From the IMG/VR virus record IMGVR_UViG_2778261088_000001: 8,170 bases of DNA. One strand, given 5' to 3'. Below the pieces are notes generated by a model. The model was not told the DNA's origin. It searched no databases and worked only from the letters and a program-made list of their open reading frames with translations. Below, in pieces: positions 1 to 8,120 of this stretch (within the stretch, counting starts at the first letter, position 1; each line of letters opens with the position of its first letter). This DNA is from a virus. Taxonomy: Duplodnaviria; Heunggongvirae; Uroviricota; Caudoviricetes. Both the position numbers and the translations under genes were made by a program.

Positions 1-191
1 AATCGGTGGAGCTGCATGACAAAGTCATCGGGCATTATCTGAACATAAAACACTATCAATAAGTTGGAGTCATTACCACCTTCATCTACATAAAAACCTT
101 CGTGATGTCTGCATGGAGACAAGACACCGGATCTGCACAACATTGATAACGCCCAATCTTTTTGCTCAGACTCTAACTCATTGATACGCAT
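1..191 (-). CDS. ea8.5: Ea8.5-like protein, N-terminal 63 codons (gene runs off the left edge of the window)
   Basis: Minus-strand ATG at 191-189 preceded by AGGAG (CAAGGAGTTTATAA-ATG); frame stays open to position 1, reading MRINELESEQKDWALSMLCRSGVLSPCRHHEGFYVDEGGNDSNLLIVFYVQIMPDDFVMQLHR. Position left of ea22 matches lambda gene order. Identification from memory. Confidence 0.6.
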   Translation of the reverse strand, partial: MRINELESEQKDWALSMLCRSGVLSPCRHHEGFYVDEGGNDSNLLIVFYVQIMPDDFVMQLHR

Positions 192-382
192 TTATAAACT
201 CCTTGCAATGTATGTCGTTTCAGCTAAACGGTATCAGCAATGTTTATGTAAAGAAACAGTAAGATAATACTCAACCCGATGTTTGAGTACGGTCATCATC
301 TGACACTACAGACTCTGGCATCGCTGTGAAGACGACGCGAAATTCAGCATTTTCACAAGCGTTATCTTTTACAAAACCGATC

Positions 383-931
383 TCACTCTCCTTTGATGCG
401 AATGCCAGCGTCAGACATCATATGCAGATACTCACCTGCATCCTGAACCCATTGACCTCCAACCCCGTAATAGCGATGCGTAATGATGTCGATAGTTACT
501 AACGGGTCTTGTTCGATTAACTGCCGCAGAAACTCTTCCAGGTCACCAGTGCAGTGCTTGATAACAGGAGTCTTCCCAGGATGGCGAACAACAAGAAACT
601 GGTTTCCGTCTTCACGGACTTCGTTGCTTTCCAGTTTAGCAATACGCTTACTCCCATCCGAGATAACACCTTCGTAATACTCACGCTGCTCGTTGAGTTT
701 TGATTTTGCTGTTTCAAGCTCAACACGCAGCCTCCCTACCGTTAGTGCAATATCCTCGTTCTCATTGTCGCGGCGTTTGACGTATTGCTGGTTTCTTTCC
801 CGTTCATCCAGCAGTGCCAGCACAATCGATGGTGTTACCAGCTCATGGAAAAGGTCAGCGTCAAATCCCCAGTTGTCATGCATTGCCTGCTCTGCCGCTT
901 CACGCAGTGCCTGAGAGTTAATTTCGCTCAC
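383..931 (-). CDS. ea22: Ea22-like protein (182 aa), exo-xis region
   Basis: 182-codon ORF in the track; same length and position as lambda ea22. Start codon is GTG (plus-strand CAC at 929-931) and overlaps the orf73 stop by GTGA, implying translational coupling. Confidence 0.8.
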   Translation of the reverse strand: MSEINSQALREAAEQAMHDNWGFDADLFHELVTPSIVLALLDERERNQQYVKRRDNENEDIALTVGRLRVELETAKSKLNEQREYYEGVISDGSKRIAKLESNEVREDGNQFLVVRHPGKTPVIKHCTGDLEEFLRQLIEQDPLVTIDIITHRYYGVGGQWVQDAGEYLHMMSDAGIRIKGE

Positions 932-1149
932 TTCGAACCTCTCTGTTTACTGATAAGCTCCAGATCTTCCTGGCAACTTGCACAAGTCCGACAACCCTGA
1001 ACGGCCAGGCGTCTTCGCTCATCTATGGGATCGCCACACTCACAACAATGAGTGGCAGATATAGCCTGGTGGTTCAGGCGGCGCATTTTTATTGCTGTGT
1101 TGCGCTGTAATTCTTCAATTTCTGATGCTGAATCAATGATGTCTGCCAT
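928..1149 (-). CDS. orf73: TraR/DksA-family C4 zinc-finger protein (lambda Orf73-like, 73 aa)
   Basis: 73-codon ORF with two Cys pairs (HCCECGDPI and QGCRTCASC) typical of TraR/DksA C4 zinc fingers; sits between ea22 and the orf61 region as in lambda. Confidence 0.8.
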   Translation of the reverse strand: MADIIDSASEIEELQRNTAIKMRRLNHQAISATHCCECGDPIDERRRLAVQGCRTCASCQEDLELISKQRGSK

Positions 1150-1200
1150 CTTTCATTAATCCATGAATTGTTGGTTAATACGCTTGAGGGTGAATGCGAA

Positions 1201-1225
1201 TAATAAAAAAGGAGCCTGTAGCTCC
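1201..1225 (-). terminator. Candidate intrinsic terminator on the minus strand (GC hairpin plus T6)
   Basis: Plus strand 1205-1225 is AAAAAA-GGAGC-CTGTA-GCTCC; on the minus strand that is a 5-bp GC stem with 5-nt loop followed by TTTTTTATTATT, 23 nt downstream of the 1248 stop codon. Confidence 0.45.
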
Positions 1226-1247
1226 ATGATGATTTTGTTTTTCATGC

Positions 1248-1529
1248 TCACCGTTCCTTAAAGACGCCGTTTAACATGCCGATCGCCAGGCTTAAATGAG
1301 TCGGTGTGAATCCCATCAGCGTTACCGTTTCGCGGTGCTTCTTCAGTACGCTACGGCAAATGTCATCGACGTTTTTATCCGGAAACTGCTGTCTGGCTTT
1401 TTTGATTTCAGAATTAGCCTGACGGGCAATACTGCGAAGGGCGTTTTCTTGCTGAGGTGTCATTGAACAAGTCCCATGTCGGCAAGCATAAGCACACAGA
1501 ATATGAAGCCCGCTGCCAGAAAAATGCAT
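1248..1529 (-). CDS. orf61: Hypothetical protein from the orf61 region; frame and length differ from the lambda reference as I recall it
   Basis: 93-codon ORF from ATG 1529, no convincing SD; alternative start at ATG 1463 (MTPQQENALR...). An upstream in-frame ATG at 1559 overlaps orf63 by 20 nt, as lambda orf61 does, but is separated from this ORF by TGA at 1532-1530. See findings. Confidence 0.45.
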   Translation of the reverse strand: MHFSGSGLHILCAYACRHGTCSMTPQQENALRSIARQANSEIKKARQQFPDKNVDDICRSVLKKHRETVTLMGFTPTHLSLAIGMLNGVFKER

Positions 1530-1539
1530 TCAGTGGTTG

Positions 1540-1731
1540 TCATACCTGGTCTCTCTCATCTGCTTCTGCTTTCGCCACCATCATTTCCAGCTTTTGTGAA
1601 AGGGATGCGGCTAACGTATGAAATTCTTCGTCTGTTTCTACTGGTATTGGCACAAACCTGACTCCAATTTGAGCGAGGCTATGTGCCATCTCAATGCTCG
1701 TTCTTAACTCAACAGGAGATGCTTTGTGCAT
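1540..1731 (-). CDS. orf63: Orf63-like protein (63 aa), exo-xis region
   Basis: 63-codon ORF; length and position match lambda orf63; overlaps orf60a by 28 nt. Confidence 0.7.
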   Translation of the reverse strand: MHKASPVELRTSIEMAHSLAQIGVRFVPIPVETDEEFHTLAASLSQKLEMMVAKAEADERDQV

Positions 1732-1886
1732 ACAGCTCCCCGTTTATTATTTATCTCCTCAGCCAGCCGCTGTGCTTTCAGGGGATTTCGGGTAACAGAA
1801 AGGCCGGGAAATACCCAGCCTCGCTTTGTAACGGAGTAGACGAAAGTGATCGCGCCTACCCGGATATTATCGTGAGGATGCTTCAT
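1704..1886 (-). CDS. orf60a: Orf60a-like protein (60 aa)
   Basis: ORF track gives 62 codons from ATG 1892; I place the start at ATG 1886-1884, which overlaps the exo TGA stop (1883-1885) in an ATGA coupling arrangement and gives the 60 codons of lambda orf60a. Confidence 0.65.
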
Positions 1887-2563
1887 CGCCATTGCTCCCC
1901 AAATACAAAACCAATTTCAGCCAGTGCCTCGTCCATTTTTTCGATGAACTCCGGCACCATCTCGTCAAAACTCGCCATGTAATTTTCATCCCGCTCAACC
2001 ACGACATAATGCAGGCCTTCACGCTTCATTCGTGGGTCATAGTTGGCAAAGTACCAGGCATCTTTTCGCGTCACCCACATGCTGTACTGCACCTGGGCCA
2101 TGTAAGCCGATTTTATGGCCTCGAAACCACCGAGCCGGAATTTCATGAAATCCCGGGAGGTAAACGGGCATTTCAGTTCAAGGCCGTTGCCGTCACTGCA
2201 TAAACCATCGGGAGAGCAGGCGGTGCGCATACTTTCGTCGCGATAGATGATCGGGGATTCAGTAACATTCACGCCGGAAGTGAACTCAAACAGGGTTCTG
2301 GCGTCGTTCTCGTACTGTTTTCCCCAGGCCAGTGCTTTAGCGTTAACTTCCGGAGCCACACCGGTGCAAACCTCGGCAAGCAGGGTGTGGAAGTAGGACA
2401 TTTTCATGTCAGGCCACTTCTTTCCGGAGCGGGGTTTTGCTATCACGTTGTGAACTTCTGAAGCGGTGATGACGCCGAGCCGTAATTTGTGCCACGCATC
2501 ATCCCCCTGTTCGACAGCTCTCACATCGATCCCGGTACGCTGCAGGATAATGTCCGGTGTCAT
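1883..2563 (-). CDS. exo: Lambda-type 5'-3' exonuclease Exo (Red alpha), 226 aa
   Basis: 226-codon ORF; sequence ([37 protein letters not shown]...GFVFGEQWR) matches lambda Exo as I remember it; ATG overlaps the bet stop. Confidence 0.95.
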
Positions 2564-3345
2564 GCTGCCACCTTCTGCTCAGTGGCTTTCTGTTTCAGGA
2601 ATCCGAGAGCTTTCACTGCTTCGACCTGTGTCAGTTCTGACGATGCGCGAATGTCGCGGCGAAATATCTGGGAACAGAGCGGCAATAAGTCGTCATCCCA
2701 TGTTTTATCCAGGGCAATCAGCAGAGTGTTAATCTTCTGCATGGTTTCATCGTTAACCGGAGTGATGTCGCGTTCCGGCTGACGTTCTGCAGTGTATGCG
2801 GTATTTTCGACAATGCGCTCGGCTTCATCCTTGTCATAGATACCAGCAAATCCGAAGGCCAGACGGGCACACTGAATCATGGCTTTATGACGTAACATCC
2901 GTTTGGGATGCGACTGCCACGGCCCCGTGATTTCTCTGCCTTCGCGGGTTTTGAATGGTTCGCGGCGGCATTCATCCATCCACTCGGTAACGCAGATCGG
3001 ATGATTACGGTCCTTGCGGTAAATCCGGCATGTGCAGGATTCATTGTCCTGCTCAAAGTCCATGCCATCAAACTGCTGGTTTTCATTGATGATACGGGAC
3101 CAGCCATCAACGCCCACCACCGGAACGATGCCGTTCTGCTTGTCAGGGAAGGCGTAAATTTCTTTCGTCCACGGATTAAGGCCGTACTGGTTGGCGACGA
3201 TCAACAATGCGATGAACTGCGCATCGCTGGCATCGCCTTTAAATGCCGTCTGGCGAAGAGTGGTGATCAGTTCCTGTGGGTCGACAGAATCCATGCCGAC
3301 ACGTTCAGCCAGCTTCCCAGCCAGCGTTGCGAGTGCTGTACTCAT
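2560..3345 (-). CDS. bet: Lambda-type single-strand annealing protein Bet (Red beta), 261 aa
   Basis: 261-codon ORF; matches lambda Bet in length and recalled sequence; sits between gam and exo. Confidence 0.95.
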
Positions 3346-3350
3346 CCGTT

Positions 3351-3767
3351 TTATACCTCTGAATCAATATCAACCTGATGGTGAGCAATGGTTTCAACCA
3401 TGTACCGGATGTGTTCTGCCATGCGCTCCTGAAACTCAACATCGTCATCAAACGCACGGGTAATGGCTTTTTTGCTGGCCCCGTGGCGTTGCAAATGATC
3501 GATGCATAGCGATTCAAACAGGTGCTGGGGCAGGCCTTTTTCCATGTCGTCTGCCAGTTCTGCCTCTTTCTCTTCACGGGCGATCTGCTGGTAGTGACGC
3601 GCCCAGCTCTGAGCCTCAAGACGATCCTGAATGTAATAAGCGTTCATGGCTGAACTCCTGAAATAGCTGTGAAAATATCGCCCGCGAAATGCCAGGCTGA
3701 TTAGGAAAACAGGAAAGGGGGTTAGTGAATGCTTTTGCTTGATCTCAGTTTCAGCATTAATATCCAT
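3351..3767 (-). CDS. gam: Gam (RecBCD inhibitor), 138-codon long form with an internal start for the 98-aa short form
   Basis: 138-codon ORF matching lambda Gam. Internal ATG at 3647-3645 ([12 protein letters not shown]...) is preceded by AGGAG (plus-strand CTCCT at 3655-3659), the classic short-form start. Confidence 0.93.
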
Positions 3768-3865
3768 TTTTTATAAGCGTCGACGGCTTCACGAAACATC
3801 TTTTCATCGCCAATAAAAGTGGCGATAGTGAATTTAGTCTGGATAGCCATAAGTGTTTGATCCAT
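3722..3865 (-). CDS. kil: Kil (host cell-division inhibitor), 47 aa
   Basis: Within the 89-codon ORF 3722..3991, ATG at 3865-3863 preceded by AGGAG gives 47 aa ([47 protein letters not shown]), matching lambda Kil; overlaps the 3' end of cIII. Confidence 0.85.
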
Positions 3866-3998
3866 TCTTTGGGACTCCTGGCTGATTAAGTATGTCGATA
3901 AGGCGTTTCCATCCGTCACGTAATTTACGGGTGATTCGTTCAAGTAAAGATTCGGAAGGGCAGCCAGCAACAGGCCACCCTGCAATGGCATATTGCAT
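3834..3998 (-). CDS. cIII: CIII (FtsH inhibitor that stabilises CII), 54 aa
   Basis: Within the 78-codon ORF 3834..4070, ATG at 3998-3996 preceded by AAGGAG gives 54 aa ([54 protein letters not shown]), matching lambda CIII. Confidence 0.88.
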   Translation of the reverse strand: MQYAIAGWPVAGCPSESLLERITRKLRDGWKRLIDILNQPGVPKNGSNTYGYPD

Positions 3999-4070
3999 GG
4001 TGTGCTCCTTATTTATACATAACGAAAAACGCCTCGAGTGAAGCGTTATTGGTATGCGGTAAAACCGCAC

Positions 4071-4439
4071 TCAGGCGGCCTTGATAGTCATATCATCTGA
4101 ATCAAATATTCCTGATGTATCGATATCGGTAATTCTTATTCCTTCACTACCATCCATTGGAGGCCATCCTTCCTGACCATTTCCATCATCCCAGTCGAAC
4201 TCACAAACAACACCATATGCATTTAAGTCTTTCGAAATTGCTATAAGCAGAGCATGTTGCGCCAGCATGATTAATACAGCATTTAATAAAGAGCCGTGTT
4301 TATTTAGTCGGTATTCAGAGTCTGACCAGAAATTATTAATCTGGTGAAGTTTTTCCTCTGTCATTACGTCATGGTCGATTTCAATTTCTATTGATGCTTT
4401 CCAGTCGTAATCAATGATGTATTTTCTGATGTTTGACAT
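4071..4439 (-). CDS. ea10: Ea10-like protein, 122 aa
   Basis: 122-codon ORF at the lambda ea10 position; ATG 4439 preceded by GAGGA. Confidence 0.8.
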   Translation of the reverse strand: MSNIRKYIIDYDWKASIEIEIDHDVMTEEKLHQINNFWSDSEYRLNKHGSLLNAVLIMLAQHALLIAISKDLNAYGVVCEFDWDDGNGQEGWPPMDGSEGIRITDIDTSGIFDSDDMTIKAA

Positions 4440-4455
4440 CTGTTCATATCCTCAC

Positions 4456-4485
4456 AGATAAAAAATCGCCCTCACATTAGAGGGC
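4456..4485 (-). terminator. Candidate intrinsic terminator on the minus strand between ral and ea10 (tL2-like position)
   Basis: Stem GCCCTC (4468-4473) / GAGGGC (4480-4485) with 6-nt loop; on the minus strand it is followed by GATTTTTTATCTG, immediately upstream of the ea10 RBS. Confidence 0.45.
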
Positions 4486-4621
4486 AAAGAAGATTTCCAA
4501 TAATCAGAACAAGTCGGCTCCTGTTTAGTTACGAGCGACATTGCTCCGTGTATTCACTCGTTGGAATGAATACACAGTGCAGTGTTTATTCTGTTGTTTA
4601 TGCCAAAGATAAAGGCTACCA

Positions 4622-4823
4622 TCAGGCAGCCTTGTTGTTCTGTTTGTCAAGTTCTCTGGCAATCATTGCCGTCGTTCGTATTGCCCATTTATCGACATAT
4701 TTCCCATCTTCCATTACAGGAAACATTTCTTCCAGGCTTAACCATGCATTCCGATTGCAGCTTGCATCCATTGCATCGTTTGAATTGTCCACACCATTGA
4801 TTTGTATCAATAGTCGTAGTCAT
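4622..4823 (-). pseudogene. ral: ral (restriction alleviation) disrupted by a +1 frameshift
   Basis: ATG at 4823-4821 opens a frame reading MTTTIDTNQWCGQFKRCNGCKLQSECMVKPG... that stops after 44 codons; the -1 frame (track ORF 4622..4810) carries the Ral C-terminus EEMFPVMEDGKYVDKWAIRTTAMIARELDKQNNKAA. The two join into a 66-aa Ral if one C is removed from TTCTTCCAGG near 4730-4734. Confidence 0.6.
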
Positions 4824-4893
4824 ACGGATAGTCCAGGTATTGTTCCATCACATCCTGAGGATGCTCTTCGAACTCTTCAAATTCTTCTTCCAT
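4807..4893 (-). CDS. Small acidic ORF (28 aa), lambda orf28-like
   Basis: ATG at 4893-4891 preceded by TAAGGTGATAT; translates MEEEFEEFEEHPQDVMEQYLDYPYDYDY, stop at 4809-4807; overlaps the ral start. Very short, so the call is tentative. Confidence 0.35.
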   Translation of the reverse strand: MEEEFEEFEEHPQDVMEQYLDYPYDYDY

Positions 4894-4945
4894 ATATCAC
4901 CTTAAATAGTGGATTGCGGTAGTAAAGATTGTGCCTGTCTTTTAA

Positions 4946-5080
4946 CCACATCAGGCTCGGTGGTTCTCGTGTAAAGGGCATGCCAAGCAAGTCGATGCTG
5001 CATATGCAAAAGAATGCGCGCTGGAAGGTATGGCGAGAACACAGGTTATCTGGCTGAAAGAGGGGGTTATTAAGGCGTGA
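4946..5080 (+). pseudogene. 3' fragment of a ybcO-like (DLP12 nin-region) gene, lacking its start
   Basis: Frame opens after TAA at 4943-4945 with no start codon and reads [44 protein letters not shown]; the last ~30 residues match my recollection of the YbcO C-terminus. Stop at 5078-5080 overlaps the rusA GTG (GTGA). Confidence 0.45.
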
Positions 5081-5439
5081 ATACCTACAGCATCACATTA
5101 CCCTGGCCTCCGAGCAATAACCGCTACTACCGGCATAATCGCGGGCGCACGCACATCAGCGCAGAAGGGCAGGCATACCGTGATAACGTCGCCCGAATCA
5201 TTAAAAACGCAATGCTGGATATCGGCCTGGCTATGCCTGTGAAAATCCGCATTGAGTGCCACATGCCGGATCGCCGTCGCCGTGACCTGGATAATCTGCA
5301 AAAAGCCGCTTTTGACGCACTCACTAAAGCAGGTTTCTGGCTGGATGATGCTCAGGTCGTTGATTACCGCGTTGTGAAGATGCCTGTTACCAAAGGTGGG
5401 AGGCTGGAACTGACCATCACCGAAATGGGGAATGAATGA
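5077..5439 (+). CDS. rusA: RusA Holliday-junction resolvase, 120 aa
   Basis: 120-codon ORF with GTG start; [26 protein letters not shown]...[12 protein letters not shown] matches DLP12 RusA as I recall it. Confidence 0.92.
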
Positions 5440-5576
5440 TGTTTGAGTTTAATATGGCAGAACTTCTTCGCCACCGCTGGGGGCGTCTGCGCTTATATCG
5501 TTTCCCCGGTTCTGTTTTGACCGATTACCGAATACTGAAGAATTACGCCAAAACCCTGACAGGAACAGGAGTATGA
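5436..5576 (+). CDS. ylcG: YlcG-like small protein, 46 aa
   Basis: Not in the ORF track (too short). ATGATG at 5436 overlaps the rusA stop; translates [46 protein letters not shown], stop at 5574-5576; sits between rusA and the Q gene as in DLP12. Confidence 0.6.
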
Positions 5577-5661
5577 AGTCAGAGATAACAATCAACTAAT
5601 ACTGTTTTGTTGATTTTTGCTTGTAATTGGCGTTCTGGTCTGATTTTTGTGGAGTAAGTTG

Positions 5662-6045
5662 ATGCGTGATATTCAGATGGTTCTTGAGCGTTGGGGTGCG
5701 TGGGCGGCTAATAATCATGAAGATGTGACCTGGTCGTCCATTGCCGCCGGTTTTAAGGGATTAATTCCTTCAAAAGTAAAATCTCGCCCGCAATGTTGTG
5801 ACGATGACGCGATGATCATTTGCGGGTGCATGGCCCGTCTGAAAAAGAACAACAGCGATTTACACGATTTATTAGTAGATTATTATGTATGTGGTATGAC
5901 ATTCATGTCACTGGCAAGTAAGCATTGCTGCTCGGATGGTTATATCGGGAAAAGGTTACAGAAGGCTGAGGGCATAATTGAAGGGATGTTAATGGCATTA
6001 GATATCCGGTTAGATATGGATATCGTTGCTAATAATTCTAATTGA
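5662..6045 (+). CDS. quuD: Q-family late-gene antiterminator (QuuD-like), 127 aa
   Basis: Track ORF begins at TTG 5647; I place the start at ATG 5662, preceded by GGAG with 7-nt spacing ([24 protein letters not shown]...). Contains a Cys cluster ([12 protein letters not shown]). Matches DLP12 QuuD from memory. Confidence 0.88.
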
Positions 6046-6182
6046 TATGCAATTGTTTACTAAAAGTTATTAAAAATGGGGCGTGGAAACGCCCCCAAAA
6101 TAAAGGGTAATATATAACAGAAGGTTTATATAGTAAGAAGCAAGGTAGTGCTTCTAAAGGAAGTGGCTTGAGGGCTCCACTT

Positions 6183-6222
6183 ATATGTTGCGGAGGCAAA
6201 GCCTCCCGCAACATATCTTTTT
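6183..6222 (+). terminator. Strong intrinsic terminator on the plus strand downstream of the Q gene (candidate tR'-like element)
   Basis: 15-bp stem ATATGTTGCGGAGGC (6183-6197) / GCCTCCCGCAACATAT (6201-6216, one bulged C) with AAA loop, followed by CTTTTT (6217-6222); ends 11 nt before the porin stop codon on the other strand. Confidence 0.55.
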
Positions 6223-6233
6223 CGTAAGTCAGA

Positions 6234-7316
6234 TTAGAACTGATAAACCAGACCTACAGCGACGATGTCGTCGGTATCAATACCAGCTGTTTTGGTAAAC
6301 TTACTATCGTCAATTAAGTTGATTTTGTAATCAACAAAAGTGGACATGTTTTTATTAAAGTAGTAAGTAGCACCGACATCGACATACTTGACTAAGTCTC
6401 GGTCACCATGAACACCAAGGTCTTTACCTTTTGACTGAAGGTAAGCAACAGATGGGCGCAGACCGAAGTCAAACTGATATTGTGCTACTGCTTCAAAGTT
6501 TTGTGCTTTGTTTGCAATATGGTTATTACCAAAAACGGTCATATTCTGAGTTTCAGAATATGTGGTAGCCAGATAGATATTGTTCGCATCATATTTCAGG
6601 CCTGCAGCCCATACTTCCGCATTTTTGCCGGAGGCATTGAATTTGCTCTTACCATAGGCGACCTGACCGTCAGTGCGATCTGATTTAGCATAGGTTGCAC
6701 CCACGCCGAATCCTTCATACTCATAAGTAGTGGAGAAACCGAAACCATCACCATTGGCTTCAGTTACGTCAGTGCGGTCATTTTTACCCTGATACTGAGC
6801 AGCAAAGTTCAGGCCATCGACCAGACCAAAGAAGTCGTTGTTACGATAAGTTGCAACACCAGTAGTGCGACCAGTCATGAACACATCTGTTTGGGTCCAG
6901 GTATCACCACCGAATTCTGGCAGAACGTCAGTCCACGCACCGATGTCGTATGCTACACCGTAGTTACGGCCGTAATCGATTGAGCCGTAATCACCAAATT
7001 TCAGGCCTGCAAATGCAAGACGGGTTTTGTCTTTGGAAGAACCTTGAGATTCAGCACGGTTGCCTTTGAATTCATATTCCCACTGACCGAAACCAGTCAG
7101 TTGATCGTTGATTTGGGTTTCACCTTTGAAGCCAAGACGGGCATAAGTAGTATCACCATCATCTGCATCATTAGAGGAGAAGTAGTGCTTGGCATTAACT
7201 TTCCCGTATAGATCCAGCTTGTTACTGTCTTTATTATAAATTTCAGCTGCCTGAGCAGACATCGCCATCAGTACTGATGCAGCTACAGCAGAAATTGCCA
7301 CTGTTAATTTTTTCAT
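6234..7316 (-). CDS. nmpC: Outer-membrane general porin precursor (NmpC/Lc/OmpC family), 360 aa, apparently intact
   Basis: Track ORF is 380 codons from ATG 7376; I call ATG 7316, which gives a classic signal peptide ([23 protein letters not shown] / AEIYNKD). The protein ends in the porin C-terminal Phe (...VGLVYQF). No insertion element interrupts it. Confidence 0.92.
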
Positions 7317-7390
7317 TGTACGCCCTTTTTTTGAACTATTATTAAAAAATGATGTCACTGCGCGATAAATATTCATCTAATCAATGTGAT

Positions 7391-7410
7391 TATTTCAAGA
7401 TGTAAGTTTT
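7391..7410 (-). promoter_or_regulatory. OmpR-box-like motif upstream of the porin gene (tentative)
   Basis: Minus strand reads AAAACTTACATCTTGAAATA, resembling the ompC C1-type OmpR site TTTACATTTTGAAACATCTA as I recall it (TTACAT..TTGAAA core), about 75-95 bp upstream of the porin ATG. No -10/-35 pair defined. Confidence 0.25.
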
Positions 7411-7742
7411 AGTTTCTCATTTAATTTGTGAAGTAGATCTCTATTTTTATCTGAACCTTTTCTATCTAATCCTATTCATGGCTCTTGTCTGAACAAAAAT
7501 AAATCTATTAGCTAATTTATATTAATGGCACTTATTTATAAGTGCTCTATAATTCTTTAGCTTAATTTAAACAAACTAAAAATAACATCGGAAATTATTG
7601 GCTGGTTATTTGTTGAAGTTTTCTTATGTATTTGTGGTGGTATTTTGAACACTCGGTGGCATTCTCACAAATATCATTTAGTAGTTTACGTACGTAAAAA
7701 ATTGGTTATGCTGTTAAGAGTGGTTACTTCGTCACACAGCTT

Positions 7743-7777
7743 AAACCCGCCGTCGAGCGGGTTTTTCCATTTTTTGA
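7743..7777 (+). terminator. Intrinsic terminator on the plus strand, 130 bp upstream of the holin gene
   Basis: Stem AAACCCGC (7743-7750) / GCGGGTTT (7757-7764) with loop CGTCGA, followed by TTCCATTTTTTG. Confidence 0.55.
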
Positions 7778-7904
7778 GTCTCGATATTAGCTGATAACCC
7801 AATACCTGAGTTATTCACTGACTCCGAATCTGTTACGTTTCTGCCTTTATTGCGATACGTAGTATCCCCTTAATTTACACCCGCTTTGTCTGCGAGGTGG
7901 GGTT

Positions 7905-8120
7905 ATGAAATCCATGGATAAGTTAACAACGGGTGTCGCCTATGGTACCTCAGCAGGTAGTGCCGGGTACTGGTTTTTACAGTTGCTCGATAAAGTCACG
8001 CCCTCACAGTGGGCGGCAATAGGTGTGCTGGGAAGTCTAGTTCTGGGCTTTTTGACTTATCTGACAAATCTTTATTTCAAGATTAAAGAAGATAAGCGTA
8101 AGGCTGCACGGGGAGAGTAA
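7905..8120 (+). CDS. essD: Class II holin/pinholin, phage-21 S21-like (EssD-like), 71 aa with a dual-start motif
   Basis: 71-codon ORF; [31 protein letters not shown]... matches S21/EssD from memory; Met1-Lys2-Ser-Met4 dual start; RBS GAGGTGG upstream; charged C-terminal tail. Confidence 0.9.

Follow-up and report, generated by a model that had tools for sequence, protein, structure and literature searches.

Introduction

Ral is a small restriction-alleviation protein. It promotes de novo methylation by type IA enzymes such as EcoKI and EcoBI, and its action is confined to type IA systems (review PMC12707154). In phage lambda, the gene encodes 66 aa (NP_040622.1; Pfam family PF11058) and belongs to the leftward early operon, where ea10 and orf28 are its neighbours. 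It is non-essential, according to the portion of PMC12707154 that summarises Zabeau (1980) and Loenen and Murray (1986), and sits in a variable accessory region (bioRxiv 10.1101/2023.04.06.535777). Ral was not a trigger of the anti-restriction-sensing cell-death systems studied by Silas et al., and our search of the literature found no support for a defence system that selects for the loss of ral.

Reading frames broken by one base can be partly rescued on the ribosome: non-programmed frameshift suppression can reach 1-10% in E. coli test constructs (PMC10861913; PMC7022156). The closest described case is a +1-nt insertion in E. coli rpoB, which brings a rare Arg codon in frame just downstream; a pause at that codon allows about 5% suppression on CCC-AGG-C (Huseby et al., 2020; PMC7022156). 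The +1 shift sites of rpoB, Ty1 and prfB use CCC or CUU (PMC7022156).

Here we describe an 8,170-nt stretch of viral DNA (hereafter the window), in which a lambda-type left operon with a frameshifted ral is joined to a module typical of DLP12-type prophages, the defective elements of the argU site.

The ral gene of the window is split by a single extra base

The ral gene occupies positions 4622-4823 on the minus strand, where the coding strand reads ATG ACT ACG ... AAG CCT GGA AGA AAT ... TAA, and measures 202 nt as against 201 nt for intact ral, stop codon counted. The first-pass annotation had described two overlapping minus-strand frames that each encode part of Ral; all of its coordinates and sequences hold in the ORF list, tblastn and Pfam comparisons. 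The ORF that starts from the ral ATG (4689-4823) yields a 44-aa product, MTTTIDTNQWCGQFKRCNGCKLQSECMVKP followed by 14 out-of-frame residues, and ends in a TAA at 4691-4689. Its 30 native residues retain all four Cys (C11, C17, C20 and C26). The other frame is open for 62 aa (4622-4810) and includes ...EEMFPVMEDGKYVDKWAIRTTAMIARELDKQNNKAA; the part that codes for Ral residues 31-66 and the stop codon spans 4622-4732, and the start codon is now in the other frame.

In tblastn, lambda Ral residues 1-30 align to 4823-4734 and residues 31-66 to 4732-4625, in different frames and with one base skipped (E = 9.8e-33). The surplus C that had been placed at about 4730-4734 could thus be located at 4732-4733: the extra base is one of two C on the plus strand, and where codons 30 and 31 meet the coding strand has GG (CCTGGAAGAA) in place of the G of intact alleles (CCTGAAGAA). 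Against the PF11058 profile (cut-off, 25 bits), the N-terminal ORF matches positions 1-31 (E = 4e-20) and the C-terminal ORF positions 29-66 (E = 5e-22). Removal of the base restores a 66-aa Ral, as had been proposed, which matches the whole profile from position 1 to 66 with 161.6 bits and is found as an exact protein, a T7, D59 variant, on 327 contigs in the protein collection.

The gene is of the lambda type by sequence and, as regards its immediate neighbours, by position. The window is 97.9% identical to lambda DNA over 1336-4973, each half of its Ral is ~97% identical to the lambda protein, and the two substitutions, K7T and G59D, are present in intact E. coli alleles too. As in lambda, ral is flanked by ea10 and orf28. 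Unlike lambda ral, it carries a one-base duplication that splits the ORF after codon 30, so that the frame breaks at 4732/4733 into ORFs of 44 and 62 aa. We therefore classify it as a ral pseudogene. As the annotation of lambda ral shows a single unbroken ORF of 66 aa, the split does not stem from a reference gene with the same sequence in a different annotated frame.

An intact E. coli allele, WP_032303759.1, is very close to this pseudogene. It encodes the same T7/D59 variant without the extra base, and its DNA (L019; NZ_CM136170.1, strain PRO_A-1407-6W-A_ESBL) equals window 4427-4834 except for one base. Since the inserted base is the only difference, the frameshift arose from the intact allele in one step. 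The prophage with the intact allele retains sieB, N, cI, cro and cII, unlike the window.

The duplication recurs in E. coli draft assemblies and on three prophage backgrounds

Positions 1-7845 of the window are 100% identical to contig NOAC01000102.1 (8,860 bp) of the E. coli draft assembly GCA_002545655.1, and the exact Bet protein of the window is encoded on four contigs of this size class. The mutation is heritable, as an identical frameshifted ral is present in two other E. coli assemblies, L003 (GCA_023538255.1) and L006 (GCA_012481455.1). The protein cluster table lists 87 E. coli contigs with a 49-aa C-terminal Ral fragment called from an internal ATG, and 41 with the 44-aa N-terminal fragment, which is named hypothetical protein; the two fragments have separate, consecutive GenBank protein accessions. 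For the 44-aa product, an exact contig-index look-up gave none as against the 41 of the cluster table, and we relied on the latter together with direct DNA comparison.

All 24 of the 24 carrier contigs that were read show one context, an apparently complete lambdoid prophage in the order int, xis ... exo, bet, gam, kil, cIII, ea10, the frameshifted ral, sieB, N, cI, cro, cII, O, P. The complete-looking prophage in L006 adjoins tRNA-Arg(TCT), the argU/DLP12 site. Compared with L003 and L006, the window is identical over 3789-4973 and has 70-82 mismatches from about 970/1110 to 3788; the allele of the window is therefore on a mosaic prophage different from those of L003 and L006. The boundary is sharp. 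Its identical part comprises cIII, most of kil, ea10, ral and orf28, and the part at about 970-3788 (the start of kil, gam, bet, exo and leftward) is about 2.5-3% divergent. Judged from this alignment, the mosaic boundary indicates probable recombination between related prophages. The same insertion is also present on a third background, the IMG/VR contig L020, which shares 98.5% identity with L006 across 11.6 kb.

Every carrier that we saw comes from a draft or an IMG assembly. Among complete RefSeq E. coli genomes, 782 matched a 66-nt ral stretch; each of these alignments to the window contains one gap, which means that none of the genomes has the insertion (0/782); this is not surprising, because the draft collection is much larger. 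An exact scan with the 35-nt insertion site gave 0 matches in the GTDB species representatives, a set that says little on an E. coli variant because it holds one genome per species, and 0 matches in the JGI metagenome contigs. In the 40 listed phage records the insertion is also absent, their aligned spans being one base below the query or ending short of the site. The insertion is thus a rare lineage variant. Recurrent mutation at a hot spot was considered for this distribution and is less likely than a single origin followed by recombination, as in the 782 matching complete genomes no further ral allele has the insertion.

The frameshifted ral lies in a defective, DLP12-like prophage

The first-pass annotation had placed ral in an otherwise intact anti-restriction and recombination cluster. 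This holds for the ORFs. On the minus strand, exo (1883-2563, 226 aa), bet (2560-3345, 261 aa), gam in its long form (3351-3767, 138 aa), kil (3722-3865, 47 aa), cIII (3834-3998, 54 aa), ea10 (4071-4439, 122 aa, DUF2528) and the orf28 homologue (4807-4893, 28 aa), which overlaps the ral start as in lambda, are all intact and, like orf60a and orf63, align over their full length with the lambda proteins at 95-100% identity; CIII is 100% identical to that of lambda. It does not hold for the regulation of the cluster, as pL, nutL, N, sieB and the immunity and replication region are lost beyond 4973. The window retains the lambda-like 138-aa gam ORF. In L003, L006 and L020, one extra A at window position 3664 breaks the N-terminal extension of the 138-aa Gam, so annotators call only a 98-aa Gam there.

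Homology to lambda stops at 4973, which corresponds to lambda 34437, just before sieB. A 3-bp GTA overlap (4971-4973) joins the left operon to a truncated ybcO-rusA nin module, which starts with the 3′ remnant of ybcO (DUF1364) and intact rusA (5077-5439); this segment (4974-5439) is on the plus strand, head-to-head with ral. In the ORF list, ylcG (5436-5576), quuD (5662-6045), a minus-strand porin gene (6234-7316) and the essD holin gene (7905-8120) follow. Because the lambda-like part runs directly into this module, sieB, N, nutL, pL, cI, cro, cII, O, P and ninA-F are all missing at the junction. A search for sigma-70-like promoters between ral and rusA (4400-5700) found 0, with 2.7 expected.

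The right half of the window is thus the ybcO remnant-rusA-ylcG-quuD-porin-essD module of DLP12-type prophages, equally devoid of immunity and replication genes. Since the cluster lacks pL, N and the immunity and replication region, we assign the window to a defective, DLP12-like prophage; contig NOAC01000102.1 begins inside the prophage, and the attachment site lies outside the window. The frameshift is not simply a consequence of this deletion, as it is also present in the complete prophage of L006. That the exo-ea10 genes (1883-4439) have stayed intact despite the loss of pL and N would mean either that the deletion is recent or that these genes are expressed or retained in some other way.

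In two complete-genome relatives, L001 and L002, the same exo-bet-gam-kil-cIII-ea10 block likewise adjoins the nin region, and the rusA-ylcG-quuD-porin-essD module is annotated in both. Both lack ral, whereas the window keeps its frameshifted copy; its internal junction also differs from theirs. The end point on the lambda side (...CTCGTGTA) is also an end point in L001, and this shared sequence suggests what may be a recurrent module boundary. We rejected an assembly chimera at 4971-4973, given an overlap of no more than 3 bp, the presence of this contig type in four assemblies and the comparable compact architectures of the complete genomes L001 and L002. The ral-rusA junction itself was in none of the places returned by a look-up of RusA, a common protein (9700 blocks).

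Several minor features were noted in these parts of the window. A terminator-like hairpin with a 9-bp stem (4612-4633, minus strand) overlaps the ral stop codon, and a second, stronger hairpin with a T-run is located between ral and ea10 (4466-4487). The porin gene (6234-7316, minus strand) is intact, encodes 360 aa of the OmpC/NmpC type and lies between quuD and essD as in other DLP12-type prophages; its longest ORF has 380 aa and extends to 7376, and the extra N-terminal stretch is not used by gene callers.

ral decays further and is lost by other routes in relatives

Close to its 3′ end, the ral of L020 has acquired a second frameshift through a deletion at window position 4634. Protein P0002, which stems from sequence of this kind, has it too, and the L020 Ral also has a T4I substitution. 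These changes indicate further decay of the allele. In L001 (5617-5720), the ~340 bp equivalent to window 4591-4931, with ral and orf28, are replaced by a few bases, and in L002 (5025-6320) an IS5 element directly follows ea10 and no ral is present. The genes exo, bet, gam, kil, cIII and ea10 are annotated as intact in both. Loss of ral by three routes in this prophage family (frameshift, small deletion or replacement, and IS5) fits a dispensable accessory gene, and also the location of ral in a variable accessory region.

The duplication is best explained as ordinary decay of a prophage gene

We consider that the extra base is a real, heritable one-G duplication of the replication-slippage type, which reflects ordinary prophage decay in a dispensable gene and abolishes Ral, with a probability of roughly 0.9. 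Real pseudogenisation was the first of three options in the first-pass annotation, which had also advised comparison with other lambda-like prophages; the comparison yielded the intact L019 allele and the identical insertion in L003, L006 and L020, and the independent assemblies, the three backgrounds and the second frameshift in one carrier support this option. The mutation would have arisen once, as G to GG on the coding strand at 4732/4733, on an intact allele that still circulates, and descent with recombination would have carried it into at least three prophage backgrounds. The ATG-started product would then have 44 residues. As it keeps the Cys-rich N-terminal 30 residues and loses the C-terminal 36, full-length Ral would not be made, and Ral function is presumably lost at little or no cost, so that the change would be neutral. 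In the copy of the window, the promoter and the antiterminator (pL and N) are additionally lost through the large internal deletion.

Ribosomal frameshifting, the option that the first-pass annotation had considered least likely, would require a +1 shift at or near CCU-GGA-AGA-A, during a pause at AGA, that restores a 66-aa Ral (wild type or E31G) and leaves the gene partly functional. AGA is a rare codon in E. coli and is read by the argU tRNA. The insertion puts this codon in frame directly after the mutation, behind GGA, and GGA-AGA recurs six codons later; an ATA and a CGA are also in frame before the stop. The rare Arg codon thus stands as in the rpoB insertion, and the related complete prophage L006 is located at argU. 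However, no CCC, CUU, UUU or GGG precedes a slow codon anywhere in the out-of-frame stretch (4733-4689), whereas rpoB offers CCC-AGG-C, and the P-site codons present here, CCU and GGA, re-pair poorly in the +1 frame (CUG and GAA). No Shine-Dalgarno-like stimulator is seen upstream on direct reading of the sequence, the operon of the window has no detectable promoter, and ral, unlike rpoB, is non-essential and not highly expressed and bears no sign of selection for read-through. The configuration is not conserved either, being limited to a few closely related haplotypes and found in 0/782 complete genomes. The second frameshift of L020 falls in the downstream frame, and together with the lack of a slippery site it argues against programmed frameshifting. 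We therefore regard this explanation as very unlikely. The extent of suppression in test constructs means that a trace of full-length, mixed-frame Ral is possible. A leaky GGA-AGA-A site, at which the AGA pause yields some full-length Ral (E31G) and anti-restriction output depends on the supply of argU tRNA, is highly improbable. Only if read-through were true would the allele bear on the partial function of frameshift alleles.

Another reading is that one or both Ral fragments are functional, either the Cys-rich N-terminal peptide of 44 aa or a C-terminal one started from an internal ATG. Both fragments are open and annotated by gene callers, and the insertion creates a GGAAG two bases before the Met33 ATG. 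This Shine-Dalgarno-like element is nevertheless weak and too close to the ATG, the Pfam model treats Ral as a single domain over all 66 residues, and the downstream fragment is struck by the second frameshift in L020. We found no PDB relative of Ral that would support independent halves, and functional fragments are extremely doubtful.

A sequencing or assembly indel, by which ral is intact in the true genome and the extra base is a mistake of the draft contig, is hardly tenable: the source contig is short (8.86 kb) and the insertion is unseen in the complete RefSeq E. coli, GTDB and JGI sets, but its identical recurrence in separate public deposits of both fragments and on three backgrounds that differ by 1.5-2.9% elsewhere is a strong argument against an artefact, the site is a dinucleotide GG with no homopolymer run, and the same context is read without the insertion in the 782 complete genomes.

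Annotation of ral alleles

Decay of ral leaves a prophage remnant that would be unable to make normal Ral, with little significance beyond annotation. The finding is nothing new in kind, and public assemblies already contain the allele. As a small and clear-cut case, it illustrates accessory-gene decay in domesticated lambdoid prophages, with exo, bet, gam, kil, cIII and ea10 still open. For users of the databases, it means that the two fragments entered publicly as 'hypothetical protein' and 'restriction endonuclease' are two halves of one pseudogene. Several GenBank records call Ral or the 49-aa fragment 'restriction endonuclease', which is the opposite of its role and a propagated misannotation. 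The record MW057783.1, 'Campylobacter phage CJLB-4' (48,361 bp), is 97.6% identical in the ral region at nearly lambda coordinates and, by this measure, looks like lambda DNA under another name.
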